From: Planctomycetota bacterium | GTDB taxonomy: Bacteria > Planctomycetota > UBA1135 > UBA2386 | Direction: 5' to 3' | DNA length: 64,000 nt | NCBI GenBank assembly: GCA_016872675.1 | Contig: VGZG01000003.1 | Span: 175-64,174 of the forward strand | Shown here: positions 1 to 48,886 of the stretch, piece by piece | How the letters are laid out: each line of letters opens with the position of its first letter | Numbering within the stretch: the stretch's first letter is position 1 | The notes under the pieces: generated by a model | Told to the model about the DNA's origin: nothing | Databases searched by the model: none | What the model saw: only the letters and a program-made list of their open reading frames with translations | Translations under genes and position numbers: made by a program

Positions 1-3000
1 GGCAGGCCGTCACCGTCGCGTTCGGTTGCGGGTGCGGCGACGTGCCGGTGAACGGATCGCCACGGAAGGCCAGCGCCCGCCGCGCGGCGTGGATCTGCGG
101 CCACGTGCTCTCGATCTGCGGCGTGTACCCGATGTACCCCGACGTCGCGGTCACCTGCGGCCACGGCGGCGTGGTCGCCGACGGCTGCGAGTTGGGGCCG
201 AGCGGGCCGACGTCGACCTGTGCTGCGCCGATGCGATTGGTGAGCAGGAAGCGCACCTGCTCCCACGCCGATCGATTGGCCCGACAGATGTGGCGGCGCT
301 CGGCGATGACGTCGTAGCGCACCCACTCGGTGTCGACGGCGTTGCCGCCCTGAGGCAGCAACTGGCAGAACTGCGTCAGCTGCAATGTCTGCGGGTCCCA
401 CAACGCCTGCGTGTTGCTGACCGGCAGCGAGATCGGCACGACGAAGACGATCTCGGTCGGCAGGTCGTCGAGGATCTTGCCCGGCTCCTGCGGCAGGCCG
501 TAGTCCTCGTAGTTGACGACGAAGCGGCGCGGCTGGCCGTCGAACTGGTCAGTCGGGATCTGGCCATCCTGGCCGGGCAGCGCCTGCTGCTGCGCGCGCG
601 TCACGCCGGTCAACTGATTGCCCTGGCGGGCGGTGTACTTGACCACCTCGACGCCACCAAACGTCGCCGACGCCGACGTCGTGGCCAGCGACCGGTCCCA
701 GCGCTGCAGACCCTGCACCAGCAGCGCATAGCCGCCGGTCGTCGGGAAGGCGTTCAGGATCTGCTCGTTGGCCGCGCTCGGAGGATACGTTCGGCCCGTC
801 GGCACCGGGTCGGCCAGCAGGATGTTGCCGGTCCAAGTCTCGTCGAGGCCCGTGCCGATCGGGAACGACGGTCCCAGCGGGATGGTGATCGTGATCGGTC
901 GCGGATTGTCGATGTAGCAACGCGCCACCGCGAAGCCGCCGATCGAGCCTTCGAGCGTCGTCTTGCCGACCATCATCGGCGTGTCCTCGCTCAGCGGCAG
1001 CGACCAGCCGGCGAGTTCGACGAGCGAGCCGACCGGGTGCGCCGGGAAGACATCGAGGTTGACGTTCTGGAACTGCGAACTGTTGATGTCGACGGTCGGA
1101 TTGCCCTGCGCGTCGACCGGAATGTCCGGCCGCATCTCGCGGCCGCGCATGCGCGCTGCGCGCCCGCCCATCGAGTCGTTCCACTGGCAGCGGAACGTGC
1201 TGCCGCGCACGCTCGTGTACTCGAACAACTCGGTGCCGATGCGCAGCAGGCCGACTTGCGGGAAGCCGTCCGTGCTCTCGACCTGCAGATCGACGTAGCG
1301 GTCGTTGCTGGCGACGCCCGGCAGCGTCTGGTTGTTGGCCAGCTGCGGGTCGAACACCGGCAGCGCCGCGGTCAGATAGGTCTGGAACCGCGACCTGCCG
1401 CGCGGGAAGCCGTCGACGTGCAGCGCGAGATCGCCGGGACGGCCACCCGCCGCCTGGAACGACACGTGCACGGGCGTGTTCGCCGGCAGGCCGAGTTCGG
1501 CGAGCGGCAGGACCACCTGCGAGGCCGTGCGCGGCACACCGGCCGGCGACGCGCCCGGATTGGGGTCGAGGCCGGCTTCGTCGATCGACTCGAGCAGCAG
1601 GTTGCCGTCGCGCGCCTCCAGCGCGAGCCGGTTGCGCTGGTCGGTGCCATCGCCGTGCTCGAACAGCGTCACCGCGCCGAGCGCCTGCGGCTCGAACCAC
1701 GCGCTGAGCCCCAGCTTGCCGACGAAGCTGTCCTGTGTGCTGAACGGGAAGGCGATCTGGTCGTGGCGACCGGTGCCCTGCTGCGTCATCCGTTGCCGCT
1801 GCGGCTGGTTGCCGGGGCCCGCCGGCCCCTGCGGTTGCGACGGCCCCGTGTTGTTGAGCAGCAGCGCGCCCATCTTGCTGACGTCGTGGCCGCGCACGTC
1901 CGGCGCCGCCCAGAACGTCTCCTGCACGCGCAGGGTCGGCGAGACGCGCCAGTTGCCCGGCATCGCCGTGGCGGGCGCGGCCTGTACGCCCGCCGCGACG
2001 TCGTCGCGGGCTGGAAAGCGCAGTTGGCCGAAGCCGAGGTTGGGGAACGCCGCCGCCAGCAGGTGCGGCGCGGCGCGACTCGCCGGATCGGCCCCGGGCG
2101 CGTTCGTCGGTAGCGCGCCGAGGTTGACCGGGTTGGTCGTCCAGAACGGCGCGCGGCGATCGAGCAGGAACGCCTCCTCGAACTGCTCCTGCGTCGACCA
2201 TCGGCGTTCGACGGCGAAGCCCGGCACGGCGACAGCGACGCCCGAGCGTTCACTGCGCGCCGCCACGCCCGACGCCACGGCGCTGCGCGTGCGGCTGGCG
2301 GCGGCGCGGTAGGCCATCCAGGGCCCCGACTGGAAGCAGATCGGCGCCGTGCCCATCTCCAGCACCGTGTCGCGCCCGGTCTGCAGGTTGCGGTAGATGT
2401 TGATCAACAGCGACGATTCGTCCTGGCTGGTCGCCGCTTCGAGCCGCGGCCGCCAAAGGCGCTCGACGAAGTCCTGCCAACCGGTGAACGGGCCGGTGCC
2501 CGCCGTGTCGGTCGCGGTGCGCAGCAACACGAGGTCGTCGGCGAGCTGGCGCGCCTTGTCGCGCGCAAACACCGGCGGCGTCGTGCGGATCGCGCCCGAG
2601 GGGGACAGCCGCACCTGCGGCGGCTGGCGCAACTGCGCCATCAGCGCCGTCAGCGTCTCGGCGCTCGCCGTGTTGGCATTGACCGGCGGCGGCACCAGCG
2701 GCTCCACCACCGTGTCGACGGCAGGGAAGTCCTGCAGCACGCGGTGCAGCAGGTTGAGCAGGAACGTGCTCGGCAGCGCCACGGCCTGCTGGCCCGTCGC
2801 GCTCGCCGTACCGGCGACCAGGCCGTGCTCGACCACGCCGGTGCGCACGTTGCGCAGCCGCACCGTGCTGCCGGGTCCAAGGTGCAGCGCCGACTTGACG
2901 ATCAGCGTGCGCGACTCGCCGGCAACGAGGTCGCCGAACACGCGCTCGGGCCGGCCCCACTGCGCCGAGGTGACCGCCTGCGTGTCGAGCGCGAAACTGG

Positions 3001-3787
3001 CGCGCAGCAGGTCGAGCTCGGCCGGCGTGAACGCGCCGGCGCCACCGCGCTCGATCTCCAGCAGGTCGCCGACCGCCAGCCACGGCTTGCGCGTGCGACG
3101 GGTCGGGTCGGCCGTGTTCGGCCAGTTGCTCGCCAGCACGCAGCGCCAATCGAGCACCAGCGTCTGGGCCGGGATCGGCTCGCGGCCGTCGCCGAACTCC
3201 GGCGCATCGACGGCGCGCTGCAGTTGGCGCAGCGAGTTGCCGTCCTTGTCGCCGTAGCGGACCAGTTCGCCGCCGACGAAGACCATGCCGCTCGGCGGCA
3301 GGTTGGCGGCGTCGTCCACCGCGAGCACGTCGGCGTCGGGCAGCAGTTCCTCGCGCAGGCGCGTCGTCGAGCCGAGCACGTTGGCGAGCAGGAGCGGCGA
3401 AGCCCCGTCGAGCGCCGGGAAGCGCTGCAGGTCGACGACGCCGCCGCCGAACACGACCTTGCCGTCCTCGGCGAGCGGCGCGAACGCCTTGGGCAGCTCG
3501 ACGCGCGCCGGGAATTCGTCGAGGCCGTCGTAGAGCGGCGTCGGGTCGATCGCCGGATGCGACAGCGCGGCGTCGGCGAGCAGCAACTCGCGCACGCTGG
3601 CGGAACCCTGGGTCACCGCCGCTTCCTCGACGTCGCGCTGCGCCGCGTCCGCGCCGACCGACATCGAGACCGCGAACGGCAGCGCCAGCAGCATCAGCAG
3701 CGTCAAGGCGAACAGCACGGCGAGCAACGCCATGCCAGCGGCGCGATCCACCATGCCCGCGGCGCGACCAATCGACGAGCGCATCAT
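1..3787 (-). CDS. Giant GspK-like minor pseudopilin (T2SS protein-K-like N-terminus plus long C-terminal extension with a LamG-like region); 3' end outside window, at least 1262 codons
   Basis: Absent from the supplied ORF track. The minus frame with codon starts at coordinate mod 3 = 1 has no listed ORF anywhere in 1-3787. My hand translation from ATGATG at 3787 reads through to position 1 without a stop (MMRSSIGRAAGMVDRAAGMALLAVLFALTLLMLLALPF...). It has a hydrophobic pseudopilin-type N-terminal helix without Glu5, as in GspK. It has a helix-hairpin-helix-like 'VNANTASAETLTALMAQL' at about 2640-2683. A LamG-like stretch 'GKLGLSAWFEPQALGAVTLFEHGDG...DLALHVDGFPRG' lies at about 1290-1740. The gene starts 2 nt after the stop of the upstream pseudopilin gene. 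Confidence 0.7.
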   Translation of the reverse strand, partial: MMRSSIGRAAGMVDRAAGMALLAVLFALTLLMLLALPFAVSMSVGADAAQRDVEEAAVTQGSASVRELLLADAALSHPAIDPTPLYDGLDEFPARVELPKAFAPLAEDGKVVFGGGVVDLQRFPALDGASPLLLANVLGSTTRLREELLPDADVLAVDDAANLPPSGMVFVGGELVRYGDKDGNSLRQLQRAVDAPEFGDGREPIPAQTLVLDWRCVLASNWPNTADPTRRTRKPWLAVGDLLEIERGGAGAFTPAELDLLRASFALDTQAVTSAQWGRPERVFGDLVAGESRTLIVKSALHLGPGSTVRLRNVRTGVVEHGLVAGTASATGQQAVALPSTFLLNLLHRVLQDFPAVDTVVEPLVPPPVNANTASAETLTALMAQLRQPPQVRLSPSGAIRTTPPVFARDKARQLADDLVLLRTATDTAGTGPFTGWQDFVERLWRPRLEAATSQDESSLLINIYRNLQTGRDTVLEMGTAPICFQSGPWMAYRAAASRTRSAVASGVAARSERSGVAVAVPGFAVERRWSTQEQFEEAFLLDRRAPFWTTNPVNLGALPTNAPGADPASRAAPHLLAAAFPNLGFGQLRFPARDDVAAGVQAAPATAMPGNWRVSPTLRVQETFWAAPDVRGHDVSKMGALLLNNTGPSQPQGPAGPGNQPQRQRMTQQGTGRHDQIAFPFSTQDSFVGKLGLSAWFEPQALGAVTLFEHGDGTDQRNRLALEARDGNLLLESIDEAGLDPNPGASPAGVPRTASQVVLPLAELGLPANTPVHVSFQAAGGRPGDLALHVDGFPRGRSRFQTYLTAALPVFDPQLANNQTLPGVASNDRYVDLQVESTDGFPQVGLLRIGTELFEYTSVRGSTFRCQWNDSMGGRAARMRGREMRPDIPVDAQGNPTVDINSSQFQNVNLDVFPAHPVGSLVELAGWSLPLSEDTPMMVGKTTLEGSIGGFAVARCYIDNPRPITITIPLGPSFPIGTGLDETWTGNILLADPVPTGRTYPPSAANEQILNAFPTTGGYALLVQGLQRWDRSLATTSASATFGGVEVVKYTARQGNQLTGVTRAQQQALPGQDGQIPTDQFDGQPRRFVVNYEDYGLPQEPGKILDDLPTEIVFVVPISLPVSNTQALWDPQTLQLTQFCQLLPQGGNAVDTEWVRYDVIAERRHICRANRSAWEQVRFLLTNRIGAAQVDVGPLGPNSQPSATTPPWPQVTATSGYIGYTPQIESTWPQIHAARRALAFRGDPFTGTSPHPQPNATVTAC

Positions 3788-3789
3788 GC

Positions 3790-4713
3790 TCACCCCTCCC
3801 GCACGGTGAAGACCGCAGTCGGCGCATCGATCGCCTCGCCGCGCGCATCGAATGAGAAGCGCAGCGGCTTCGCCACCTCGCACTCGATCGGCAGTTGCTG
3901 CGGCGAACCGAACTGGTAGACGAACCAGCGCAACTCGTCGACGACGCCGGCGAAGGCCGCGTCGGCGGGTGCGAACTCGAACGTCGCCTCCGGCTCCTGC
4001 TGCGGCGTGCCCTCGGCGATCGCGTCGCCGACCTCGCGGCCGTCGACCGCGAGCCAGCAGCGGCGCGTGTCGCAACCGAGGTCGATCGTGCACCAGCGGC
4101 CGCGCGGCAGCGGCTGCGCGGCGGCGACGGCGACGAGCCGATTCTCGTTGGTCCCGAGCGACGCCATCCGCAGGCGCGCGCGCAGCTTGCCGTCGGAGTC
4201 GAGGGTCAACTCGATGCCCGGCGGCAGACGCAGCAGCGTCGCCGGACCTTCGGACTCGCGCAGCAGGTCGAAGCGGACGACGAAACCCTCGCGCAGATCG
4301 AGCAGCGCCTGCGGCGCCCTCCACCGGACCGCCGGGTCGCGGCCGCCCGGTGCGATCCGCAGCGCGTGGCCGAAGCGGCCGTCACGCGTCGCCTCGCCGC
4401 CGAGCGTCGGCCGCAGGCTGTCGTCCTCGAATGCCTGGTTGGCCTCGAACCGGAACGACACCACGGGCCGCAGCAACCGCGCCTGCACCGTCGCTGGCGC
4501 TTCTTCGCTGCCCGGGCGGACGAGCACCTCGGTCGGCACGCCTTCCGCGCGCGCCGACAGCTGCGCCGCCCGCAGTTCGCCGCCGAGCGCGGCGTTGGCC
4601 ACCACCCGTGGATCGGTCTTGCCGAGGAAGCCAACGGACAGGCCGGTGAGCACCGACAGGATGGCGATCACCACCAGCAGCTCGAACAGCGTGAATCCGG
4701 TGGCGGCGCGCAT
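3790..4713 (-). CDS. Pseudopilin with prepilin-type N-terminal methylation motif and LamG/concanavalin-like C-terminal domain
   Basis: The N-terminus 'MRAATGFTLFELLVVIAILSVLTGL' matches G-F-T-L-x-E plus a hydrophobic helix. The C-terminal 'GRFGHALRIAPGG...GFVVRFDLL...RWCTIDLGCD..CWLAVDGREVG' resembles Laminin_G_3-type domains. Amino-acid composition is non-shadow. Confidence 0.75.
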   Translation of the reverse strand: MRAATGFTLFELLVVIAILSVLTGLSVGFLGKTDPRVVANAALGGELRAAQLSARAEGVPTEVLVRPGSEEAPATVQARLLRPVVSFRFEANQAFEDDSLRPTLGGEATRDGRFGHALRIAPGGRDPAVRWRAPQALLDLREGFVVRFDLLRESEGPATLLRLPPGIELTLDSDGKLRARLRMASLGTNENRLVAVAAAQPLPRGRWCTIDLGCDTRRCWLAVDGREVGDAIAEGTPQQEPEATFEFAPADAAFAGVVDELRWFVYQFGSPQQLPIECEVAKPLRFSFDARGEAIDAPTAVFTVREG

Positions 4714-4723
4714 CGGGGCAGGC

Positions 4724-5359
4724 TCAGTTCGACGGCCAGACGATGTCGTCGTCGGTGTTGAAGCGCTGGTCCGGGCCAGCGCTCAGCAGTTGGAACTTGC
4801 CAGCGCCGTAGACGACGCCATCGGGGCGGCGGCGGGACTTCACCTGCGCCGTGTCGGTTTCCGCGTCCGGCTTGACCACCTGCGGGCGCTCGAGCCCGAA
4901 TTTGCCGAAGTACGCGATCGGCGTGCTCCAGTGGTCGGTGACCTCGAGCCGGTCGCGGCGCTTGAGCAGCGGCAACTCGACGCCATGGTCGTCGGCGTCG
5001 GTGTTGCTGTAACGATCGGCGAGGCTGGTCAGGTCGAGCCCGTCCTGCTGCGACTGGCTGAGGAAGCAGACCAGCGACTCGATGCCGGTGTTGACGCCGT
5101 TGTCGCCCTTCCACGTCGCCTTGGCAATGCCTTCCGGCGCCTTCAGGTCGTCCGGCGGGTAGATGCCGTGCTTGCGCTGGAAGCGCTGGATGCCGCCTTC
5201 GAGCATCTGCAGGTTGGTCTCGGTGGCGGTAGCGTTGGCGGCCTCGTTGGCGCCGAACACCTGCGGCAGCAGCACGGCGGCGAGCACGCCGAGGATCGAG
5301 ATGACGATCAGGAGTTCGATCAGCGTGAAACCGCGCGCGGCGGCGGATGGACGGGTCAT
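4724..5359 (-). CDS. gspG: Type II secretion major pseudopilin GspG-like
   Basis: 'RGFTLIELLIVISILGVLAAVLLPQ' is a prepilin motif with Glu5. The C-terminus 'DHWSTPIAYFG...FQLLSAGPDQRFNTDDDIVWP' matches the GspG pattern D-x-W-G-x-P-Y...S-x-G-x-D...DDI. I moved the start from 5395 to the ATG at 5359 (MTRPSAAARGFTL), which lies 1 nt after the upstream stop. Confidence 0.75.
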   Translation of the reverse strand: MTRPSAAARGFTLIELLIVISILGVLAAVLLPQVFGANEAANATATETNLQMLEGGIQRFQRKHGIYPPDDLKAPEGIAKATWKGDNGVNTGIESLVCFLSQSQQDGLDLTSLADRYSNTDADDHGVELPLLKRRDRLEVTDHWSTPIAYFGKFGLERPQVVKPDAETDTAQVKSRRRPDGVVYGAGKFQLLSAGPDQRFNTDDDIVWPSN

Positions 5360-5360
5360 G

Positions 5361-8066
5361 TCAGCGCTCCTTGCGGCGTTCGAGCCGCCAATCATCGAAG
5401 GCGATGTCGACGTCGTCGCCCTTGTCGCCGAGCGCGAAGAGCACCGTCTTCAACTCGGAGTTGGTGTTGCCCGTAAGGGCCTTCATGACGCGGCGGTGGA
5501 CCACCGCGCCGTTCCAGCTGACGACGAGCGCGAACTGACGCATCGCCGCATCGCCCTGCGGCACGAGCCGCAGCTCAAGGCTCACTGCGGCCCCCGGCTG
5601 GAAGCCGGGAACCGCTAGGTTGACCTGCTCCACCGCGACCTCGCCGTTCTCGCGGCCGTCCGCGATGCGCAAGAACGGCTTGCCCTCGCGCACGCCGACG
5701 CGCACCAGCACGTCCGTGCCCTGGTTGCCGCGCGGCACCTCGATGCCGATGCCGTAGAAACCGCGCGCCGCCGGCTGGGCGGCGCCGGCCTGCACGGTGG
5801 CCGACACGGCGAGGAAATTGCGGCCCTTCTTGATGGCGCCGACGCGTTCGGCCCAGATCTCGCCCTGGCCCGCGCGGCTGTACTTGCCGCGGAACACGAG
5901 TCGCCCGGCGACGATCTTGCCGCCGAGCGGGCCGTCGTCATCGACGGCCCAGACGCTGCCGACCTCAGGGCGGTCGAACGAGTCGCCAAGCGACTCCTTC
6001 TGCGCGTGGTCATCGATCGCGTCGAGCGTCACCGAAGCCCACTTGGACACTGGATCGTCCTTGCCGAGATCCTGGGTCAGCCGCTGCAGCGCCATGGCGG
6101 CGTCCTCGACCTGGCCGCGGCTGTAGTCGACGACTGCCAGCGCGCCCTTGCCGAACGCCTTGTTGCGCTCGTCGGCGGCGGCGTCACGGCCGGCGGCGAA
6201 GGCCACGGCAGCGGCGCGAGGCTCGGCCGCGGCGAAGGCGATCACGCCCTGCCACTCCAGCAGTTCCTGCGCCGCCACCGGCGCCAATTCGACGGCGCGA
6301 TCGGCATAGCGTTGCGCGGCGACAAGCGCCGCCGCCTGCTCTTCGCCGACGCTTTCGCGGGCGCGCGCGGCCTGCGCCGCAGACATTTCGGCGACGGCGT
6401 GCACGAAGTCGTCGCGCAGGCGCAGCGCGCCGGCGAGCGACTCGACCGCGGCGCCGAGTTGCCCCGACAGCCGCAGCGCGCGGCCACGCAGGTACATCGC
6501 GAATACGTCGGTCGGGTCCGCTTCGAGGGCGCGATCGAGCCAACCCAACGCAGTCTCGTACTGGCCGACGCGCAGGAACGCCCAGGCGAGACCCGTGGCG
6601 GCGCGGTGGCGCAGCAGCGGATCCTGGTCAAACACGCGCAGGAACAGGTCGTGCGCGTCCTGCAACTTGTCGAGCCACGCGAGACACGCCGCCTGCCCGA
6701 ACTGCGCCGACCCTAGGTCGCCGACGTTCGTGACGTTGCGGAACGCGGCCAACGCCGCGTTGGCGTCGCCGGCGGCGTAGGCGATGCAGCCTTCAAGGTA
6801 CTGCGTGCCGCCCTCGGTGCCCTGCGCCAGCGGCAGCGCAGCGCGGGCTCCGGCCACGTCGCCGGTGGCGAGACGGCACTGCACGACGATGCGGCCGACG
6901 CGGGCTTTGGCGACCGGATCCTGGACCGAGCCAATCGCTTGTTCGGCCCGGAGCGCCGCAGCCGCGGCTTCCCTGCTGCGGCCACGTTGCCGCAGGAACT
7001 CAGCGAGCGATGCATGCGGCCGCGCGTCGGTCGGCTGCAATTGCGTCGCCTGCCGCAGATCGGCTTCGGCGTCGCGCCACAGGCCGAGTCGCGCCTTGAC
7101 GGTGCCGAGGCCCTCGAAACGGAATGCGCCCTCGCTGCCGGAGGGCGGCAGCTTGTCGAGCATCGCGAGTTCGGCGGCAAGATCGCCTTGCACGCGCAGC
7201 ACACGCTGCATCAGCCGCAAACCATCGAGGTCGCCCTTCGACAGTTCGCGATACTGCTGGGCGTGGAAGTAGGCCTTCTCGTAGACCCAGCTGTGCTCGC
7301 GCGCGCGCTCGAGCAACCAATCGACGAGCGCACGGCGCTCGGGCAGGTGCGATGGCAAGTCCGGCACCTTGCGCTCACGCCGCGCAATCTCGTTGCGCAG
7401 CGTGTTGGCGAGCACGACGCGATCGATGCGCAACGGCTCGGCGCCGAGCGTGAGGACCTCGGCAAGCCGCTGTCGCGTCAAGTCGTACTTGCGCAGCTTG
7501 AGCGTGACGCCAGTGAAGTCCCTGCGCTCTTCGAGCGCGAACAGGTCGAGGCCGTCGGCTTCGAGGACGCCGAACTGCGGCGCCGCGAGGCCGCCGTAAT
7601 AGACGCGGTCGTAGGTCAGCGCGGCGCGTGCCTCCAACTCGGCGCGCGTCCCTGCCGCTTGGCCTTCGACAACTTCAGCCGCCCCGGACGAAGCCTCGCC
7701 AGCGGTGGCGATGGCGACGTCAACCAGCGCGCCGCCATCAGCGCGCAGCGCATACGACTGCCGCGGATCCGGGCCAGGATCGAGCGGCGGCGCCGCCAGC
7801 GACAATGGCGCGCGCGGCGGGAATTCGAGAGTGCGCGGCGGCAGCGGTTTCGTCTCGCTCGGCTCGGTGCAGAAGTCGCGGCGCGCGACAGCCGGCGCGT
7901 TCGCGCTCGCCAGCGCCGGCATCGCCACGGGCGCTGCCTCGTACTCAGCGGCTTTTGGCGCGAAGCGGCGGAAGACCGGCGGACCGCCGAGATGGCCCCG
8001 GGCGACCAGCGCCGTGACGACGAGAGTCAGACCCGCGAGAACCTGTTCCTTGCGCAACGCCATCAC
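5361..8066 (-). CDS. Membrane-anchored TPR-repeat protein with C-terminal LamG/concanavalin-like domain
   Basis: There is an N-terminal TM segment 'VLAGLTLVVTALVA'. The central region has many TPR-like Ala/Leu repeats. The C-terminus 'GKIVAGRLVFRGKYSRAGQGEIWAER...FLRIADGRENGE...LVVSWNGAVVHRRV...DIAFDDWRLE' looks like a LamG/jelly-roll domain. The start is GTG 8066 or ATG 8063, with GGAGG 7 nt upstream of 8063. It overlaps the stop of the PilO-like gene. Confidence 0.7.
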   Translation of the reverse strand: MMALRKEQVLAGLTLVVTALVARGHLGGPPVFRRFAPKAAEYEAAPVAMPALASANAPAVARRDFCTEPSETKPLPPRTLEFPPRAPLSLAAPPLDPGPDPRQSYALRADGGALVDVAIATAGEASSGAAEVVEGQAAGTRAELEARAALTYDRVYYGGLAAPQFGVLEADGLDLFALEERRDFTGVTLKLRKYDLTRQRLAEVLTLGAEPLRIDRVVLANTLRNEIARRERKVPDLPSHLPERRALVDWLLERAREHSWVYEKAYFHAQQYRELSKGDLDGLRLMQRVLRVQGDLAAELAMLDKLPPSGSEGAFRFEGLGTVKARLGLWRDAEADLRQATQLQPTDARPHASLAEFLRQRGRSREAAAAALRAEQAIGSVQDPVAKARVGRIVVQCRLATGDVAGARAALPLAQGTEGGTQYLEGCIAYAAGDANAALAAFRNVTNVGDLGSAQFGQAACLAWLDKLQDAHDLFLRVFDQDPLLRHRAATGLAWAFLRVGQYETALGWLDRALEADPTDVFAMYLRGRALRLSGQLGAAVESLAGALRLRDDFVHAVAEMSAAQAARARESVGEEQAAALVAAQRYADRAVELAPVAAQELLEWQGVIAFAAAEPRAAAVAFAAGRDAAADERNKAFGKGALAVVDYSRGQVEDAAMALQRLTQDLGKDDPVSKWASVTLDAIDDHAQKESLGDSFDRPEVGSVWAVDDDGPLGGKIVAGRLVFRGKYSRAGQGEIWAERVGAIKKGRNFLAVSATVQAGAAQPAARGFYGIGIEVPRGNQGTDVLVRVGVREGKPFLRIADGRENGEVAVEQVNLAVPGFQPGAAVSLELRLVPQGDAAMRQFALVVSWNGAVVHRRVMKALTGNTNSELKTVLFALGDKGDDVDIAFDDWRLERRKER

Positions 8067-8884
8067 ATCCCCTCCGTCGCGTCAGTCCTCGGTTTGAACG
8101 CGAGCCCGATTGCCGTGCCCTTGATCGCGCATGCCTCGCCTGGCCGCGCTGGCTTCAGCATCTGCCACGATTCCAGGACGATCTGACTATCCGGCTTCGC
8201 GCCACCAAGCGCCTCGAGGAAGGTCAGCGCGGTGCGTTCGTCGGACTGGAATTGGAACGACAACTGCTCCTGCGTGAAGAAGTCGCGCACATCGATTTCA
8301 CCCGGTCGCTGCGCGCGCATCGGTGCGCGCTGGCTGCGGCGCGCGTCGAGCTTGAGTGACACAATCGACCGCAGACCCACGGCCGTCTCGTCGGTCGCGC
8401 GCGTGGCGTCGTGCGCGCCGTAGAGCCGCGCCTGGACCGCGTCGATCAGGTCCAGTCCGAAGAGCGTCGCGCGGATCTCGTCAACGCCGGTCGGGACCTC
8501 CCAGGCGATGGCGCCGTCGGCGACCTGGACGTCGCGCTGGTTTGCGCTGGCGAGGATGCGCTGCTTGAGGTCACGACTCTGCTGGAAGAGGAAGTCGCCT
8601 GGACGAACGCCATCCGGCAATTGAAAGGTCGCGCTGGGCGCGTACTGCAGCGCCTTGACGAGCGCGGCGCGCGCCTTGGCGAGTTCCTCACCCTCGGCGC
8701 GGGCGGCGTCGAGCGCGGCCTGCGTGTAGACCGGGCCAGTCGGCGCGCCGAGGCTGCGCTCGGTCGGCACCTGCACGGCGTGCACCGAGTCGAAGATCGC
8801 GCTGACAAGGAACCAGCTGACAGCGCCGCAGCCGACGCCGAGCAGCCACTTCTTGTTCTCCTGAACGAACGCGCCAACGTCCAT
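8063..8884 (-). CDS. PilO/GspM-like bitopic assembly protein
   Basis: The track ORF 8063-9607 has an Arg-rich N-terminal half that overlaps pilM in another frame. The real start is the ATG at 8884 (MDVGAFVQENKKWLLGVGCGAVSWFLVSAIF), which overlaps the PilMN stop as TGATG. The product has a single N-terminal TM segment and a periplasmic domain. Its position directly after PilM-PilN is the basis for the PilO/GspM-like label. Confidence 0.5.
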   Translation of the reverse strand: MDVGAFVQENKKWLLGVGCGAVSWFLVSAIFDSVHAVQVPTERSLGAPTGPVYTQAALDAARAEGEELAKARAALVKALQYAPSATFQLPDGVRPGDFLFQQSRDLKQRILASANQRDVQVADGAIAWEVPTGVDEIRATLFGLDLIDAVQARLYGAHDATRATDETAVGLRSIVSLKLDARRSQRAPMRAQRPGEIDVRDFFTQEQLSFQFQSDERTALTFLEALGGAKPDSQIVLESWQMLKPARPGEACAIKGTAIGLAFKPRTDATEGM

Positions 8885-10503
8885 CACATAGCCTCCTTGG
8901 CGAGTTCGACCGTGATGCGAAACCGCTCCGACTTGTCCTGACTGGGGATTGGCACCATCAGCGCCTCGAGACCAACCATGTTTGGGTCCGCCTGCATCGC
9001 CTGCTTGAACTTGAGGATCGCGCCGCTGGTCTGCACGCCATCGACCTCCTTGCCCGCGCCCTCGACGACGACGGTCGGCTTCTTGCGCACGCCGCCGCCG
9101 CCGCCCGACGTGACCTCGACCTTCTCGATCCACAACTGCGGCGGCACGTGCGCGGCGATGGCGCGCTGCACCCGCAGCAGGCCATGGTGCGCGAGCGACA
9201 GGCCAGCGAGGTGGTCGACGAGCGCGCGATCGGACTTGTTGGCGTCGATCTGCGCCGCGGCGTCGTTCTGCGCCGTGGTCGCCGCGATGATCTCCCGGCG
9301 CATTTTCTGGCCGGCGACCTCCGCCACGGCCACCGCCTTGCCGCCGTGACTCCACTCCAATGCGAGCGCGCCGACTACGAGCGCGCCGGCGACGATGTTC
9401 CAGACGGTGCGCTGCTGGAAGCGCTGCGCCTTGCGCACGGCCTCCGGCAGGATCTCGAGCGCATACAAGGAGTCGTCGAGCCGCCCGACGGCGAGGCCAA
9501 GCGCGACCACCGCTTCGGCGCGATGGGCCTGCAGCATCTCGGCGTCCGCCGGCGGCAGCGCCGAAAGGTCGACGTTGGCGAACGGATCGAAGACCTCGAC
9601 CGGGCACCGCAGCGCTTCGCGCAGGAAACCGCGGACACCGCGCACGTTGGCGCCGCCGCCGCTGAGCAGCACACGGTCGACCTTGAGGTCGGCGAGCTTA
9701 GCCTGGCTCTTGCAGAACGAGATCGAGGATTGGATCGCCGAACTGATCGCGCCGGCGGCCGACGTCGCCGCGAGCGCCACCTTCTCCGCCGCACCGCCGC
9801 CGTGCCGACCGCGGTTCTGCGGGTCGATGTCGAGCAGCTCCTTCTTGAGCGCCTCCGCCTTGCGTTCCGACACGTTGAAGGCCGACGCGATCGCGTCGTC
9901 GAACACCTTGGCGCCGGCGCTGAGGTTGCGCGCGAACAGCAGGTCGGTGCCCTTGCAGATCGCGAGGTCGATCGTCTGGTGGCCGATGTGAGCGAGGACG
10001 ACGACGCTGTCAGCCTCGACCGGACCGCACTTGAGGTAGGCGTTGTAGAGCGCCGTGCAGTTGGGCACGAACGCGGCGACCGCGCCGCCGGCGTCCTTGA
10101 CCTGCTGCTGGAGCCGGTCGAGCGCCTCGTCCTTGGCGAGCGCCAGCAGGATGGTGTCCACGCCGGACTCGGCGTCCTGAGTCGGCAGCAGGTTGTAGTC
10201 GGCGGACAACGCGCCGCCGGACTGCTGTGCGAGGTCGGCGATCTCGAGTTCCATCAGGTTGCGCAACTGCCAGTCCGGCGTCGGCGGCACCTGGCTGTAG
10301 CGCAGCATCATGTCGCGACCGGAGACGCCGCAGACGACACCCGCGAGCGGCAGCCCAACATCGCGCAGGGGCGCCGGCTCGCCATCCTCGCCGCGAGGCA
10401 GCGCCGCGAACCGCAGGATCTTCACGCCGCGTTTGTCGACCGACGCCGCCAGCGCCTTCGCGCTGTGGCTGCCTAGGTCGCATGCGATCGCTTTCTTCGC
10501 CAT
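8884..10503 (-). CDS. pilM: PilM-PilN fusion (GspL-like): actin-like ATPase-fold PilM domain, TM segment, PilN-like periplasmic domain
   Basis: 'MAKKAIACDLGSHSAKAL' and 'VLLSGGGANVRGVRGFLREAL' are PilM/FtsA-like actin-fold motifs. A TM segment 'VWNIVAGALVVGALALEW' follows at about residue 365, then a coiled/periplasmic region. Confidence 0.75.
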   Translation of the reverse strand: MAKKAIACDLGSHSAKALAASVDKRGVKILRFAALPRGEDGEPAPLRDVGLPLAGVVCGVSGRDMMLRYSQVPPTPDWQLRNLMELEIADLAQQSGGALSADYNLLPTQDAESGVDTILLALAKDEALDRLQQQVKDAGGAVAAFVPNCTALYNAYLKCGPVEADSVVVLAHIGHQTIDLAICKGTDLLFARNLSAGAKVFDDAIASAFNVSERKAEALKKELLDIDPQNRGRHGGGAAEKVALAATSAAGAISSAIQSSISFCKSQAKLADLKVDRVLLSGGGANVRGVRGFLREALRCPVEVFDPFANVDLSALPPADAEMLQAHRAEAVVALGLAVGRLDDSLYALEILPEAVRKAQRFQQRTVWNIVAGALVVGALALEWSHGGKAVAVAEVAGQKMRREIIAATTAQNDAAAQIDANKSDRALVDHLAGLSLAHHGLLRVQRAIAAHVPPQLWIEKVEVTSGGGGGVRKKPTVVVEGAGKEVDGVQTSGAILKFKQAMQADPNMVGLEALMVPIPSQDKSERFRITVELAKEAM

Positions 10504-10525
10504 AGGTGTGGTCTCGCGCTCGCCG

Positions 10526-12472
10526 TCAGTTGCCGAGGTGCTTCTGAATATACTCGCGGACGATCTGGCTCAGGCCGTCCTGCTGGGCGTCAGCGAACGC
10601 CTGCGCCAGCGCTTGCAGCCGTTGCCGCTGTTGCGCGGCAGTCTGCGCGTCGAACTCGGCGAGCTTGGCGCGGGCCGCGTCGCGCAGCGCCGTCGCAGCC
10701 TTGGCGTCGCCGAGGTTGCGCTCGCCATAGAGCGCGACGACGTCGTCGACGCCGAACGCGACGCGCTCGAAGCCGCCGCGCGTCGAGAAGAACGTCGCTT
10801 CGTCGAAATCGCGCTGCAGGTCCCGCAGCGTCGTGGCCTGCGCCGCCATTGTCTCGGCCGCGAGCGCGAGCGCATGGCCGAGGGTCTCGGAGTCCATCGG
10901 CACGCGGCTCGCGACCTCGCGCAGCTTGTCGAGCGTCTCACCCGGCCGGCCCTCGTCGCGCGCGCGGCGCGCCTGCCGAACGAGTTCGGCGGCTTGCTGT
11001 CGCTCGCCCCGGAACAGCACGTCGACCTCGAACTCCGCGAGCCCGATCGCCGAGATCCGGTAGCGGCCACCGCCAAAGCGGCCAACGCAATCGACTTCGC
11101 CGGCAAAACGAACGAGCGCGCGCGTGAGGTCTTCGCCGAATAGCGTCGAAACGCAGCGGAACGACGACGACGAGGCGCGCGACGTGAAAACGCCGTCGCT
11201 CGCGCCGGTGATCAGCGCCCCGGCGGCGGCCGCCGGCATCACGAGCTGCAGGCCGGGGGCATTGGCGGCGACGAAGCGGAAGCCTCGTTCGCCGACGGTC
11301 ACGGATAACGACGCGCCGAGGTCGCTCAGCGTCAGCAGATCGGCGCGATGCAGGCCGGCGAGCTCCGTCGGCGCCGGGTCGGGCAGGATCGCGAGCAGGA
11401 CCGCCGGCGCGTCCTTGTCGACCGTGCGCAGCGCGAGCGCATCACCGGTGCCGAAGACGGTGTGGCTGCCGTCGGCGAGCTTGGCTTCGACCGGCGCCGC
11501 CGAACCCGCTTCGATGACGCTGCAGTCGTCGACGTAAACGACCGCATCGGCGTTCGGCAGCGTCGCGACGACCTCCAGCTGCAGGCGGTCGCAGCCGGCC
11601 GGCGCCGCCAGCACGAGCTCGAGTCGCGTCCAGCCATCGGCCGCCGCCAGCTTGGTGCCAGTGCGGAAAGCGAATGGCGCTTGCTCGTTCGCCGACGCAA
11701 ACACCGCGCGCAGCGCGACGGTCGCGCCGCCCTCGGCGCGGACATGCGCGGCGAGCGTATAGGTGCGCTGCGGGAACACCGTCGTTGCGTCCTGCGCGCG
11801 CATCACGGCGAAGTCAGCCACGTCGGCGTTCTCGCCACGGCGTGCTTCGAACGCGCCGCTGCCGGTGTGCGCCACGCCACACGGGTTGAAGCCCGCGCCT
11901 GCCGGCCGCAGCGACCAACCATCGGCGGCCTCGCAACCGCTGACGCCGGCGGCGAGTTTGTCCCCCGCGACGGCGAGAATCGGCCGCGGTCCGGCGCTAA
12001 CGCCGCCACCGCCACCGACCTGCTGTGTTCGCCCGAGCCATAGGTACCCACCGGCGCCAAGACCGGCGACGAGCGCGAGTCCCAGTATTGCGGTCGAGCG
12101 CGAGCCCTTGCCCAGCCGCGAACGGTCGAGCGTGCGCAGCGCCACGGCGCCGCCCTCGGCGACGCCGACGGCGCTGGCGCCCTCCTCGCGGAAGGCCACG
12201 CGCCAGCGTCCGAAGGTCACCACGTCGCCGGGCGTCAACAAGAGCTCGGTGACGCGCTTGCCGTCCAGCAACGTGCCGTTGGTCGAGCCGAGATCCCGCA
12301 GGATGCAGCGATCGCCTTCGAGGACGATCTCGGCGTGGCTACCGGAAGTTTTCTCGTCGGCGAGGACCAGATCGTTGCCCGGCTTACGGCCGATGCGCAG
12401 CGGACGATCCGGGATCGCAACGACTTCGCCGGCTCGATCCCCGTCGAGGATCTCGAGGACGTACTTGGCCAT
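10526..12472 (-). CDS. FHA-domain protein with TM segment and CBM4/9-like carbohydrate-binding-type domain
   Basis: FHA signature: 'LRIGRKPGNDLVLADEKTSGSHAEI...LRDLGSTNGTLLDGKRV'. TM segment: 'TAILGLALVAGLGAGGYLWL'. The stretch 'GWSLRP...TYTLAAHVRAEGGATVALRAVF...WTRLELVLAAPAGCDRLQLEVV...VYVDDCSVIE' resembles the CBM_4_9 pattern. I moved the start to the ATG at 12472 (MAKYVLEIL). Confidence 0.8.
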   Translation of the reverse strand: MAKYVLEILDGDRAGEVVAIPDRPLRIGRKPGNDLVLADEKTSGSHAEIVLEGDRCILRDLGSTNGTLLDGKRVTELLLTPGDVVTFGRWRVAFREEGASAVGVAEGGAVALRTLDRSRLGKGSRSTAILGLALVAGLGAGGYLWLGRTQQVGGGGGVSAGPRPILAVAGDKLAAGVSGCEAADGWSLRPAGAGFNPCGVAHTGSGAFEARRGENADVADFAVMRAQDATTVFPQRTYTLAAHVRAEGGATVALRAVFASANEQAPFAFRTGTKLAAADGWTRLELVLAAPAGCDRLQLEVVATLPNADAVVYVDDCSVIEAGSAAPVEAKLADGSHTVFGTGDALALRTVDKDAPAVLLAILPDPAPTELAGLHRADLLTLSDLGASLSVTVGERGFRFVAANAPGLQLVMPAAAAGALITGASDGVFTSRASSSSFRCVSTLFGEDLTRALVRFAGEVDCVGRFGGGRYRISAIGLAEFEVDVLFRGERQQAAELVRQARRARDEGRPGETLDKLREVASRVPMDSETLGHALALAAETMAAQATTLRDLQRDFDEATFFSTRGGFERVAFGVDDVVALYGERNLGDAKAATALRDAARAKLAEFDAQTAAQQRQRLQALAQAFADAQQDGLSQIVREYIQKHLGN

Positions 12473-12686
12473 CGGTTGTATGTGGGGTCGGGCGGCAGGC
12501 ATGCCGCAGCAAGCGAAGCGCGCCGGCGGAGCGGCCGACGCACCGGATGGGTCGGGGACGCGAGCCCGCTGCCGGCCTGACACAAACTAGCCCGCCGCCG
12601 ATGCGCCGCAACCAACCGTTGGCAAGACTTCTATGCCGACTCTAGGTCGCCGCGCGGTGCCGTCGGCGTTACAACCTGCCGACGGG
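12473..12686. promoter_or_regulatory. Divergent intergenic region between the FHA/pseudopilin operon and rsmE
   Basis: A 214-bp non-coding gap lies between divergently oriented genes, so the promoters for both must sit here. I could not assign confident -35/-10 boxes. Confidence 0.3.
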
Positions 12687-13367
12687 ATGGCCAACCGCTA
12701 CTTCGTCGAGGCGCTGCCGGCTGTTGGCCGCCACGAACTACCCGAGGACGTCGCCCACCACCTCGCCCGCGTGCTGCGCTGCCGACCGGGGGATCCGGTG
12801 CGGCTTGGCGATGGCGCGGGCGGCACGGCCGATGCCGTCGTGGCCACTGCCGACAAACGCGGCGTCGCGGTCGACGTGCAGGCCTGTCGCCGCGAACCGG
12901 CCCCGCCGGTCGCCCTGACGTTGGCCTTCGCGCTGCCGCGGCTACAGCGCACCGAGTGGCTGCTCGAGCACGGCACGGAACTAGGCGTGGCGGCCTTTCA
13001 ACCGATCTGGACCGCGCGAACGCGCCCGGGGAACGAACGTCCGGAGCGCTGGCAGCGCATCGTCAACGCCGCCGCCGGGCAGTGCGACCGCGCTTGGCTG
13101 CCGCTCGTGCAGCCGGCGTGCGAGCTCGCCGACTTGCTGGCGCGGACCGACAGCGGCACGCGGCTGCTGGCGAGTCCGGCCGGCGCGCCGAGCCGGCCGC
13201 TCGACGCCGGTCGCGCCACCCTGCTCGTCGGCCCCGAGGGCGGCTTCAGCGACGACGAACTCGCGGCCATCGCCGCGGCGGGCTACGCCGGCGTCCGGTT
13301 CGGCGGCCACATCCTGCGCACCGAGACCGCCGCGATGGTCGGCGCCGCGCTGCTGTTGGCGCGCTGA
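12687..13367 (+). CDS. rsmE: 16S rRNA (uracil1498-N3)-methyltransferase RsmE
   Basis: The N-terminus 'MANRYFVE' is typical of RsmE. The C-terminal SPOUT motif is 'LLVGPEGGFSDDE...GGHILRTETAAMVGAALL'. I moved the start from 12633 to 12687. Confidence 0.85.
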   Translation: MANRYFVEALPAVGRHELPEDVAHHLARVLRCRPGDPVRLGDGAGGTADAVVATADKRGVAVDVQACRREPAPPVALTLAFALPRLQRTEWLLEHGTELGVAAFQPIWTARTRPGNERPERWQRIVNAAAGQCDRAWLPLVQPACELADLLARTDSGTRLLASPAGAPSRPLDAGRATLLVGPEGGFSDDELAAIAAAGYAGVRFGGHILRTETAAMVGAALLLAR

Positions 13368-19996: not shown

Positions 19997-21051
19997 CGGC
20001 TCACCTCCGGGAACTGTCCGAGGAAGCGCTGGTCGCCGCCCATGAACTGCCGGATGTCGTCGATGCCGTAGCGCAGCATGACGACCCGCTGTAGGCCCAT
20101 GCCGAAGGCGAAGCCGACGAATTCCTCGGGGTCAAGGCCGCCGGCGCGCAGCACGTTGGGATGCACCATGCCGCACGGCAGGATCTCGATCCAACCGGAC
20201 TGCTTGCACACCGCGCACCCTTGGCCCTTGCAGAACGGGCAGTTGACGTCGAGCTCGAAGCCAGGCTCGACGAACGGAAAGAACCCAGGCCGCAGCCGCA
20301 CCTGCACGTCGCGCTCGAGCACGACCCGCAGGCATGTCTTCATGGTGTGGATCAGGTTGGCGATGCTGATGCCGCTGTCGCCGTGCGCGCGATCCACCAC
20401 CAGTCCTTCCATTTGGTAGAACGTGTGTTCGTGCGTGCGGTCGACGGTCTCGCTGCGGAACACGCGGCCCGGCACGATGACCTTGAGCGGCGGCTGGAAG
20501 CCCTGCTTGACCGCGCGCTGCAGCGTGCGCACCTGCACCGGCGATGTGTGCGTGCGCAGCAGGTTCTTGTCGGTCAGCCAGAACGTGTCCTGGCTCTCGC
20601 GCGCCGGATGGTCGCCAGGGATGTTCAGCGCGTCGAAGTTGAAGAACTCCGACTCCACCTCGGGCCCGTCCTGCCACTGGAAGCCAAGGCTCGTGAACAG
20701 GTCGACCAACTCGTTCTGCACGATCGTGATCGGGTGCATCGTGCCGCGCGCCTTGCGCGCGCCAGGCTCGGTCGGGTCGAAGGCCGCGCCCTCGAACTCG
20801 CGCGCCATCGCGGCGGCCGCGAACTGCTCCTTGCGCGCAGCGACGGCGGCCTCGACCTCCTGCTTCATCGCGTTGGCGAGCTTGCCGAACGCCGGCCGCT
20901 CCTCCTTGGGCAGCGACGTCACCGAGCGCACGAACTCGGCGACCTCGCCCTTGCCGCCGAACAAGCGGCTCTCGGCCTCGGCGAGAGCGGCGAGGTCAGC
21001 GGCTGCGGCGACGGCGGCCAGCCAGCGATCCAGTTGGGCTTGTGGATGCAT
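19993..21051 (-). CDS. pheS: Phenylalanine--tRNA ligase alpha subunit
   Basis: Class II aaRS motifs are present: 'HPARESQDTFW', 'LRTHTSPVQVR', 'GRVFRSE' and 'GFAFGMGLQRVVMLRYGIDDIR'. Confidence 0.95.
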   Translation of the reverse strand: MHPQAQLDRWLAAVAAAADLAALAEAESRLFGGKGEVAEFVRSVTSLPKEERPAFGKLANAMKQEVEAAVAARKEQFAAAAMAREFEGAAFDPTEPGARKARGTMHPITIVQNELVDLFTSLGFQWQDGPEVESEFFNFDALNIPGDHPARESQDTFWLTDKNLLRTHTSPVQVRTLQRAVKQGFQPPLKVIVPGRVFRSETVDRTHEHTFYQMEGLVVDRAHGDSGISIANLIHTMKTCLRVVLERDVQVRLRPGFFPFVEPGFELDVNCPFCKGQGCAVCKQSGWIEILPCGMVHPNVLRAGGLDPEEFVGFAFGMGLQRVVMLRYGIDDIRQFMGGDQRFLGQFPEVSR

Positions 21052-33269: not shown

Positions 33270-33288
33270 GGCGTGGGTCGGTCTCTGT

Positions 33289-34515: not shown

Positions 34516-34636
34516 GCGGCATGTCACGGTAGCCAGCAACTGCTGCGCCTGCCACGCCGAGCCGTCGCCCTGGGCCACAGGCCACCGGCGCGTGTTTGCC
34601 GTGGCACCTGGCGACGGAGCGTGCCAACATCCGCGC
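34516..34636. promoter_or_regulatory. Divergent control region between the ATP-grasp B/A-MFP-RND operon and the glgA/ATP-grasp C operon
   Basis: A 121-bp gap lies between the two divergent start codons. It contains an imperfect inverted repeat AGGCCACCGGC...GCCGTGGCACCT. The promoters are inferred from gene geometry only. Confidence 0.3.
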
Positions 34637-36112: not shown

Positions 36113-36146
36113 CCCTGATCGGCCTCCGCCACCACGACGCCTCGCC

Positions 36147-48243: not shown

Positions 48244-48836
48244 TGCGGGCCGAGGTCGGCTAGAAAACCCTTGAGGCGGGTCAGCGCGCGGACGTAGCGG
48301 TTGCTCGCCGCGTTCTCCTGGATACCCAGCACGTCGGCGGCCTCCTTGTTGGACAGCTCCTCGAAGTGGCGAAGCAACAGCACTTCGCGGTCGATCTCAT
48401 CCATGCTCGCCAGGGCCGACTCGACCTTGGCGCGCAACTCCTCGCGCATCACCGCGCCGCTCGGCGAGGTGATCTGCGCGACGAAGAAGCTCGAGATCGC
48501 ATTGCTCGCGGGCGCCGAAACCTCGCGGCCAGCGCTTCGCATCTTGGCGCCGAGGTGCTTGCGGTGCAGGTCGATCATCGTCTGGTGCGTCATCAGGCGA
48601 ACCCAGACCAAGAACGGCTTCTGGTCGTCGCGGAACGCCAGCACGCGCTTCTTGGCCTCGAGGAACGTCTCCTGCACGACGTCATCAGCGTCGATACGGC
48701 CGACAAGGCGTGGGTCGAGGCGGAACTGAACCATGCGGAACAACCGCTCCCGATGGCGCTCGAATAGTTGCGCCATCGCCGCGTCGTCGCCAGCACGCAA
48801 CGCGGCCTCAAGCTGCTCGTCGGTCCGTTCCATCAT
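48240..48836 (-). CDS. ECF-type RNA polymerase sigma-70 factor
   Basis: The start is ATGATG at 48836 (MMERTDEQLEAAL). Region 2 is 'DADDVVQETFLEA'. Region 4 is 'LLLRHFEELSNKEAADVLGIQENAASNRYVRALTRLK'. The track start at 49109 adds an Arg-rich extension overlapping aroDE. Confidence 0.85.
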   Translation of the reverse strand: MMERTDEQLEAALRAGDDAAMAQLFERHRERLFRMVQFRLDPRLVGRIDADDVVQETFLEAKKRVLAFRDDQKPFLVWVRLMTHQTMIDLHRKHLGAKMRSAGREVSAPASNAISSFFVAQITSPSGAVMREELRAKVESALASMDEIDREVLLLRHFEELSNKEAADVLGIQENAASNRYVRALTRLKGFLADLGPQ

Positions 48837-48886
48837 GCGGAGGATAACCGATCGTCGCGCCGATCCGGCGCCAGCACACCGCGATG

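Follow-up and report, generated by a model that had tools for sequence, protein, structure and literature searches.

An eleven-gene operon for type IV filament-like components with a giant GspK-like subunit in uncultured Planctomycetota

The window analyzed here is a stretch of 64,000 nucleotides (64 kb; G+C 70-71%) from a Planctomycetota bacterium (GenBank assembly GCA_016872675.1, contig VGZG01000003.1, positions 175 to 64,174 of the forward strand). Seven genes on its minus strand, here termed G1 to G7, are the first seven of a conserved eleven-gene operon. In the order of the operon, these genes encode a protein with an FHA domain and a single transmembrane (TM) segment (G1), a fusion of PilM and PilN (G2), a protein resembling PilO and Amuc_1100 (G3), a tetratricopeptide repeat (TPR) protein (G4), a probable major pilin (G5), a minor pilin with a LamG-type domain (G6) and a GspK-like protein (G7), followed by a minor pilin of 404 amino acids (aa; G8), a 156-aa minor pilin resembling GspI and ComGE (G9), a 500-aa exported protein (G10) and a parvulin-type peptidyl-prolyl isomerase (PPIase; G11). 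Five of these are pilin-type genes, which in their order correspond to positions G, H, K, J and I. Together G1 to G11 constitute the parts of a type IV filament machine apart from its motor. A search of the full-text literature recovered no paper describing this operon.

Organization and conservation of the operon

An earlier note on this DNA, made from the sequence alone, had described seven co-directional genes with tight junctions, and both the shared (minus) strand and the junction values hold. G1 and G2 are separated by 22 nt; G2 and G3 overlap by 1 nt in a TGATG at 8884; G3 and G4 overlap by 1 nt if G4 starts with the ATG at 8063, or by 4 nt if it starts with the GTG at 8066; and the gaps that follow are of 1 nt (G4/G5), 10 nt (G5/G6) and 2 nt (G6/G7). 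As an account of the whole operon this description falls short, in that four more genes follow and G7 itself is cut by the edge of the window. The gene for the TPR protein, which had been placed amid the pseudopilin genes, actually lies between the platform and the pilin genes. The operon shows no excess of terminator-like hairpins over shuffled sequence (6 observed as against 5.9 expected). The divergent intergenic region preceding G1 is presumed to be the promoter region of the operon; a scan for a sigma-70-like consensus upstream of the operon came back empty, this consensus being uninformative for the phylum.

The earlier note had also proposed extending the contig leftwards, running HMM searches and comparing synteny, and these steps yielded four more operon genes in a conserved order and no gspD, gspE, gspF or gspO. 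Exact-sequence look-ups of G5 and G2 each found the same locus on 22 contigs, all from lake metagenomes, one being a 123-kb ENA contig (L001) on which G7 can be read to its full length of 1,733 aa; the same look-up with G6 gave no match. Ordinary T2SS (type II secretion system) genes downstream had been named as the finding that would speak for a conventional system. A gene at the GspJ position and a GspI-like gene are indeed present there, in non-canonical form, while gspD, gspE and gspF are not. All eleven genes were called in three of the loci (L001, L076 and L077). Look-ups with G7 homologs recovered the eleven genes on an 893-kb marine TARA contig and in a relative with a 40% identical G7, with housekeeping genes coming thereafter.

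With an alignment of G2 homologs as the query, a search that covered each GTDB species with a single genome recovered 60 loci, all from uncultured metagenome-assembled genomes (MAGs). Their sources are nearly all labeled as Planctomycetota or as a planctomycetal subgroup, one of them being the freshwater CL500-15. In every sufficiently long locus among the 60 the seven-gene core is present in the same order, at identities going down to 49% for G2 and 29% for G3. An exhaustive phmmer search with G7 recovered 312 cluster representatives at E <= 1e-3, many of them 1,600-1,870 aa long and 28-33% identical; where the source of these distant homologs is named it is a 'Planctomycetota bacterium' MAG, with the JGI annotation sometimes reading 'pseudopilin PulG', and across G2 and G7 homologs with a named source almost all are Planctomycetota or Planctomycetes MAGs. 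The G3 protein is 100% identical to one assigned by NCBI to a 'Planctomycetes bacterium' MAG. A metagenome scan with a single distant G7 homolog retrieved nothing, whereas one with an alignment of distant relatives retrieved 76 loci. By BLAST mapping about 35 of these 76 keep most or all of the order from G1 to G11, at a G+C content of 52% to 70%, the identities being 25-35% for G7 and 35-40% for G2; no further conserved operon gene emerged from the same mapping of these approximately 35 loci. The order kept in both the close loci and these distant ones indicates that the operon is old and fixed in composition. Table 1 lists its genes.

Table 1. Genes of the operon and the intergenic region preceding it (coordinates are those of the window unless contig L001 is named)
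Feature	Location	Strand	Description
Divergent intergenic region	12473-12632	.	160 bp; between G1 and plus-strand RsmE-type methyltransferase gene
G1	10526-12472	-	648 aa; first gene of the operon
G2	8884-10503	-	539 aa
G3	8063-8884	-	273 aa
G4	5361-8063	-	900 aa; 901 aa if the start is GTG at 8066
G5	4724-5359	-	211 aa
G6	3790-4713	-	307 aa
G7	1-3787; gene runs past the left end of the window	-	N-terminal 1,262 of 1,733 aa in the window
G8	L001, after G7		404 aa; G/FTLIE; passes N_methyl and TIGR02532; J position
G9	L001, after G8		156 aa; G/FTLAE; weak matches to ComGE (2.2e-5) and GspI (0.002)
G10	L001 18448-19950, just past the left end of the window	+ (on L001)	500 aa; signal peptide; long helical middle
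G11	L001		Parvulin-type PPIase; overlaps the end of the G10 gene

The putative platform and the pilin-type proteins

G2 combines a PilM-type actin-like ATPase domain with a hydrophobic segment (approximately residues 365-385) and a PilN-like periplasmic part. It matches the Pfam family PilM_2 at 66.6 bits (cutoff 27), and its profile recovered from the PDB the PilM of Myxococcus xanthus (E = 1.7e-15, residues 48-346) and, colinear after it, the PilN of the same organism at a marginal E = 0.0077 (residues 349-491). The phosphate- and adenosine-binding motifs of the actin fold, D9-x-G11 and G282-G283-G284, are invariant among 20 homologs. Against TIGR01175 it scores 80 bits, under the cutoff of 133, and its best NCBIfam family is Amuc_1101_fam (NF045709) at 137.7 bits and E = 5.8e-40, where the cutoff is 650 bits; G2 thus appears to be only a distant relative of the Amuc_1101 family and not an equivalog of it.

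G3 consists of an N-terminal TM segment (residues 13-31), coiled-coil helices and a C-terminal alpha/beta domain, and was without sequence matches in Pfam, NCBIfam and PDB profile searches. Its AlphaFold2 model (mean pLDDT 86) nevertheless retrieved with Foldseek, as the best PDB hits, the structures of Amuc_1100 (6kny, 6lad and 6laf; E = 4e-8, TM-score of 0.72 on the target, 14-15% identity), followed by the PilO proteins of Pseudomonas aeruginosa (2rjz, E = 1e-4) and M. xanthus (3jc8_Oa, E = 2e-3). The predicted structure is therefore of the PilO/Amuc_1100-like fold. Given the family match of G2 and the structural match of G3, the two would form a PilMN-plus-PilO pair of the kind encoded by the MUL2 locus of Akkermansia. 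The earlier assignment of a PilM-PilN fusion and a PilO-like partner is supported by the PilM_2 match, the colinear PilN match and the G3 model.

Prepilin motifs are present in G5 (G/FTLIELL) and G6 (G/FTLFE), and G7 has a hydrophobic N-terminus with Ala in place of Glu at position +5, in agreement with what had been read from the sequence before. G5 matches the Pfam family N_methyl above its cutoff. Its best NCBIfam match is the GspG family TIGR01710, at 51.4 bits as against a cutoff of 88.85 (E = 1.1e-13) and over residues 9-70 only; PDB profile searches likewise matched the alpha-1 helix, that of type IV pilins as well as that of GspG (E = 1e-14 to 1e-12; GspG, 5wda, at 8.9e-12). It is probably the major pilin or pseudopilin. 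G6 passes the cutoffs of both N_methyl and TIGR02532. Its match to Laminin_G_3 is under the cutoff (E = 0.0029), and a profile built from 30 orthologs matched in the PDB the LG domain of laminin alpha-1 (1.6e-5) and, more weakly, those of SHBG and neurexin. This points to a minor pilin at the GspH position with a C-terminal LamG/concanavalin-like domain, as the label of a LamG pseudopilin had anticipated; a LamG fold does not by itself imply sugar binding. We considered membership of these genes in the 'Verru_Chthon cassette' and rejected it, as the N-terminal pilin helices alone match and the scores are far under cutoff.

Downstream of its N-terminus G7 is predicted to contain a helical domain of the T2SSK type with a P-x-N-V-N-T-A-S motif (residues 366-374) and then about 1,200 mostly beta residues. 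The Pfam family T2SSK was detected in 19 of 27 orthologs (best E = 2.7e-4) and not in the G7 of the window itself, for which the sole PDB profile match is XcpX/GspK of P. aeruginosa (5vtm_X) at E = 0.28, located at the NVNTAS motif; these matches support the description of G7 as a giant GspK-like protein. Several orthologs also match HhH families. The AlphaFold2 model of residues 1-1200 (mean pLDDT 72.7) has a helix at 19-74, is confident over 50-520 and is beta-rich beyond. With Foldseek it retrieved nothing from the PDB below E = 1e-3, and GspK was not recovered. For its small beta-barrels there were weak similarities, of about 100 residues at E = 0.03-0.2, to phage tailspike and depolymerase domains. 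A conserved C-terminal strand of G7 includes HGWKTTARVEDVRVEYEGQGR. No lectin or carbohydrate-binding module (CBM) family was found in a Pfam scan of the 27 orthologs.

A short motif, G-x-h-x-h-x-x-E-h-h-x-Y … R-G … G-T … H, occurs in about six copies in G7 and once at the C-terminus of G8 (window 1-3787, minus strand, and L001 11573-17985); alignment of the repeats with hhalign is marginal (E = 0.003-0.12). Two G7 orthologs and G8 also weakly match Rcc01698_C, a Pfam family of gene-transfer-agent tail proteins. G7 has paralogs outside the operon in three loci (L132 9527-15604, L152 9221-15616, and L148), of 2,025-2,131 aa and 23-24% identity. Next to the genes for these paralogs are those for an extracytoplasmic function (ECF) sigma factor and for an unassigned protein of 450 aa, and HEAT/TPR proteins and a TPR-kinase are encoded close by. 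These three loci were considered as T2SS loci with E and F genes, a candidacy rejected on inspection as what they hold is the ECF sigma factor, the HEAT/TPR proteins and the kinase.

Among the genes beyond the window, the prepilin N-terminus of G9 is borderline, scoring 16.4 bits against a cutoff of 16.3 in the marine relative L076. G10 has a conserved C-terminal CxxCxGxG…CxxC motif resembling the zinc finger of the DnaJ type, and no match to any family or PDB profile.

The FHA and TPR proteins and the genomic surroundings

G1 comprises a cytoplasmic FHA domain (approximately residues 7-97), one TM segment (128-146, by hydropathy scan) and a periplasmic part of about 500 aa ending in a helical region. 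It scores 63.4 bits against the Pfam family FHA (cutoff 20.7, E = 2.6e-17) and 60.9 bits against Yop-YscD_cpl (cutoff 33.2, E = 1.4e-16). Within the FHA domain Gly28, Arg29, Ser43, His46 and Asn65 are invariant among 28 orthologs, the last four being the residues that contact phosphothreonine. Profile searches of the PDB returned FHA domains only, the periplasmic part being without a detectable family or PDB profile match, and a weak match to PrgH was seen in 2 of the 28 orthologs. In its layout, with an FHA-type domain in the cytoplasm joined by one TM segment to a large part in the periplasm, G1 resembles SctD (YscD/PrgH) of the type III secretion system, from which it differs in keeping the phosphothreonine-binding residues, in having a periplasmic part without detectable ring-building motifs and in its pilus-type context. 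The conservation of these residues makes phosphothreonine control, through recognition by the FHA domain, plausible. The conserved operon includes no kinase; the single Ser/Thr kinase of the window, a 928-aa protein (45457-49109, minus strand), is encoded 33 kb away from G1, directly downstream of an ECF-type sigma factor gene.

G4 has a hydrophobic N-terminal anchor (residues 8-26), a region of unassigned fold, TPRs at approximately 320-680 and a beta-rich C-terminal region of about 200 aa. TPR families are above their Pfam cutoffs, and the PDB profile matches are to TPR proteins only, among them PilW, a protein of pilus biogenesis (2vq2, 4.7e-7), whose match is of a generic TPR kind; the N- and C-terminal regions matched no PDB profile. 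The earlier note had labeled G1 an FHA-TM-CBM protein and G4 a TPR-LamG protein. The FHA, TM and TPR parts of these labels stand, and the CBM and LamG parts, which gained no sequence support from Pfam scans (0 of 28 orthologs in each case), PDB profile searches or hhalign, are unverified rather than refuted. A LamG module common to G6 and any of G4, G7 and G1 was likewise rejected at the sequence level, with hhalign probabilities below 1% each (0.2 for the LamG region of G6 against G4).

On the other side of the presumed promoter region an RsmE-type gene (12633-13367, plus strand) is the divergent neighbor of the operon in almost all related loci; it is one of two RsmE-type (Methyltrans_RNA/PUA_4) methyltransferase genes in the window, the second being at 55196-55939 (plus strand). 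Beyond it lies a gene for a 744-aa exported protein (13465-15699, minus strand) that is rich in Cys, Asn and Gly and matches neither Pfam nor NCBIfam families. This gene is closed as a transcription unit of its own by a strong hairpin at 13416-13388. In 21 related loci the gene likewise lies upstream of the operon with the divergent rsmE in between, and some of these (L012 and L014) have two or three tandem open reading frames (ORFs) of about 680-740 aa. The product of the gene may be a substrate of the machine or its partner at the surface, or may be unrelated to it. At the other end of the operon, in L076 (19444-20650), no strong terminator-like hairpin occurs until one behind scpB (20623-20650), and scpB may be co-transcribed with the pilus-like genes there. 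Elsewhere in the window are a PSCyt2/PSD1 and DUF1501 gene pair typical of Planctomycetota and, at 32052-37367, three ATP-grasp proteins around a glycosyltransferase of the starch/glycogen-synthase type (GT5), followed by a phosphopantetheinyl transferase.

A filament model and its alternatives

Taken together, we favor, at a probability of roughly 0.6, the interpretation that the operon specifies a membrane platform and five pilin-like subunits of a filament akin to type IV pili (T4P) and the T2SS, with G7 as the tip subunit and the motor, channel and peptidase drawn from other loci. In such a machine, the PilM-PilN protein G2 and the PilO/Amuc_1100-like G3 would form the inner-membrane platform for assembly and alignment, with G1 as a bitopic protein exposing its FHA domain to the cytoplasm and G4 as a membrane-anchored periplasmic TPR scaffold; G1 and G4 might take the connector roles that canonically fall to GspC or PilP and to TPR pilotins. 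G5 would polymerize into the body of the filament, and the priming or tip complex would comprise G6 at the H position, the I-like G9, G8 at the J position and the K-like G7. G10 and the PPIase are probably periplasmic assembly or folding factors. A hexameric ATPase, a polytopic platform protein, a prepilin peptidase and any outer-membrane channel would have to come from elsewhere in the genome. From the phosphothreonine-binding residues of G1 we infer that the machine may be subject to FHA-mediated regulation.

The placement of G7 at the tip follows from the observation that minor pilins of the K type (PilK/GspK) always lack Glu5 and are apical, and from the precedent of CpaL, a minor-pilin-like protein of Caulobacter with an inserted adhesin domain (PMC13533445). 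In the operon Glu5 is present in four of the pilins and missing only from G7. As the apical subunit, G7 would display at least some 1,200 extra residues as a built-in adhesin or ligand-capture module and would replace the separate adhesins PilY1 and PilC. CpaL, too, is at the GspK position, has a pilin-like N-terminal module and carries a large extra region predicted at the tip; at about 600 residues and as part of a Tad (T4c) system it differs from G7 with its 1,733 residues and T2SSK-type domain, of which it would be a far less extreme version (PMC13533445). Because of the size of this cap and the PilMNO-type platform, we lean towards a filament that reaches the surface or spans the envelope rather than a periplasmic endopilus.

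Several results weigh against this interpretation. The earlier note had recorded that GspE, GspF, a secretin and a prepilin peptidase are lacking from the 12.5 kb that hold G1 to G7; this is correct, and it extends to the ORFs scanned across the entire window, in which no PilB/GspE-type ATPase, PilC/GspF-type platform protein, secretin or prepilin peptidase was found, and to the immediate surroundings of every copy of the operon examined. Nor is there a PilP family member or a Secretin match in any operon copy or the window, or a GspC, GspD, GspE or GspF in cis or in the window. That the parts make up a working machine is hence assumed. In PDB profile searches the globular part of G5 was without a match and G8 matched at its pilin N-terminus only, its globular part again being unmatched; to these may be added the marginal PilN match of G2. 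Finally, the findings are compatible with a surface pilus and with a periplasmic endopilus alike.

One alternative is that the operon is simply the gspG to gspM half of an ordinary T2SS, forming a short periplasmic endopilus that drives folded exoproteins through a secretin, with gspC, gspD, gspE, gspF and gspO elsewhere and the odd proteins being typical of the lineage. We regard this as unlikely, though it has several features in its favor. The same functional set is gathered in one operon, with counterparts of gspG, H, K, J and I beside an L-like fusion and an M-like protein; the layout of G2 (actin-like, TM, periplasmic) is that of GspL; the T2SSK-type alpha domain seen in most G7 orthologs is typical of GspK and not of the T4P protein PilX; G9 weakly matches GspI and ComGE; and the best NCBIfam match of G5 is to GspG. 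Moreover, T2SS genes are commonly divided among several loci, Legionella and Pseudomonas being examples. However, the match of G5 to GspG concerns the common N-terminal helix only, on which pilins score equally, and at the level of sequence and fold the platform proteins match PilM, PilN and PilO and not GspL and GspM. The gene order is G-H-K-J-I, the H-type subunit carries a LamG domain, and a K-type subunit with 1,733 residues, some five times as large as GspK, is hard to fit with a piston working inside a secretin vestibule. Further, genes for GspC, GspD, GspE, GspF, GspN and GspO are not near, relatives of GspC, GspD and GspN being linked in none of about 100 loci. With the GspG match under its cutoff, no C, D, E or F components and a Pil-type platform, the operon is not a canonical T2SS. 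Nor is it a canonical type IVa pilus (T4aP) system, because PilP and PilQ are missing, PilM and PilN are parts of one protein and a separate PilY1 is lacking. To the T4aP of Myxococcus, Pseudomonas and Neisseria it is similar in its PilM domain, colinear PilN match and predicted PilO-like fold, and in having one major and four minor pilins, a K-type pilin without Glu5 and a very large tip-associated protein. It differs further from these in that the last two are one and the same protein with a T2SSK-type domain, in the addition of the FHA-TM and 900-aa TPR proteins and in PilB, PilC, PilT and PilD being unlinked.

The matches of G2 and G3 raise the possibility that the operon is the planctomycete counterpart of the Akkermansia MUL2 system (Amuc_1098-1102), capturing polysaccharides or glycoproteins at the surface and feeding 'selfish' uptake into an enlarged periplasm, and that its product might be the dextran-binding fibers emanating from crateriform structures. 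Both organisms belong to the PVC (Planctomycetes-Verrucomicrobia-Chlamydiae) superphylum, and both systems have adjacent genes for a long PilM-like protein and a protein of the Amuc_1100 fold, with Amuc_1101_fam being the best family match of G2 and Amuc_1100 the best structural match of G3. In Akkermansia, the adjacent Amuc_1101 and Amuc_1100 genes are MUL2B and its neighbor, and the internal accumulation of mucin needs the mul genes (PMC13174399, PMC12418764), while in Planctomycetes dextran binds to pili-like fibers, which the paper describing them does not identify at the molecular level (PMC5394234). The LamG-type domain of G6 and the tailspike-like beta-barrels of the G7 model, in that they recall phage polysaccharide depolymerases, would also fit. 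Against this, the Amuc_1101 score of 138 bits compares with a cutoff of 650, so that G2 is not an equivalog, and MUL2 is a set of four genes and a secretin, which lacks the FHA, TPR and giant GspK-like proteins (PMC13174399). MUL2 also has no minor pilins of the I, J and H types; it uses the archaeal-type pilin-like protein Amuc_1102 and adjoins a gene for the channel protein of a secretion system (PMC13174399). Furthermore, G1, G4 and G7 showed no match to a lectin or CBM family, the tailspike similarities are confined to E = 0.03-0.2 over some 100 residues, and every named source of the operon is an uncultured MAG whereas the fibers were seen in cultured species. The glycan-binding tip and accessory proteins of the earlier note remain a hypothesis, the LamG-type signal being restricted to G6; its characterization of the operon as an atypical one of the pilus/T2SS kind is upheld. 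On balance the MUL2-counterpart scenario seems doubtful, and we put forward a link to dextran-binding fibers or mul-dependent uptake as a hypothesis only.

It is also conceivable that there is no filament, and that the pilin-like proteins are anchored periplasmic or surface proteins of a trans-envelope or membrane complex, which are only processed by a prepilin peptidase. Planctomycetota possess very large families of proteins with prepilin signals that are not obviously pilins. Likewise, motor genes are linked in no locus, and the G7 paralogs of L132, L148 and L152 are neighbors of an ECF sigma factor, away from any pilus-type setting. Yet, the strict co-conservation of an H-I-J-K and major-pilin set with equivalents of PilM, PilN and PilO is a signature of filament assembly, and the retention of Glu5 in all pilins other than the K-like one is expected only where subunits stack helically, which renders a complex without a filament highly improbable.

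The operon, then, is neither a canonical T2SS nor a canonical T4aP, and its G2 is no Amuc_1101 equivalog, but it would work like T4P and the T2SS. Starting from the preferred T4P/T2SS-like filament, one might go further and see in it a distinct, unclassified branch of type IV filaments of uncultured Planctomycetota, in which a priming pilin has become a 190-kDa tip organelle and an SctD-like FHA protein couples assembly to Ser/Thr-kinase signaling, and which is the basis of capture fibers and continuous with Amuc_1100/1101 uptake in Akkermansia; this combined proposal is a speculative one with rather long odds.

The operon brings together a PilMN fusion with a PilO-like partner, a GspK domain within a 1,733-residue subunit, an SctD-like FHA protein and a 900-residue TPR protein, a set not found together in any of the systems compared here, and it does so as a fixed complement of eleven genes kept across deep divergence in abundant uncultured Planctomycetota of aquatic and soil habitats. 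G7 offers an extreme natural case for the recent model that filament initiation is licensed by minor pilins of the K type and by tip adhesins (PMC13533445). The fold match of G3, found beside the PilM-like G2, indicates that the Amuc_1100 fold with a PilM-like partner also exists outside Verrucomicrobiota and lends support to seeing in Amuc_1100 a component of a machine, in the manner of PilO. Should the filament extend to the cell surface, the genes of the operon would be candidates for encoding the dextran-binding fibers of Planctomycetes (PMC5394234).

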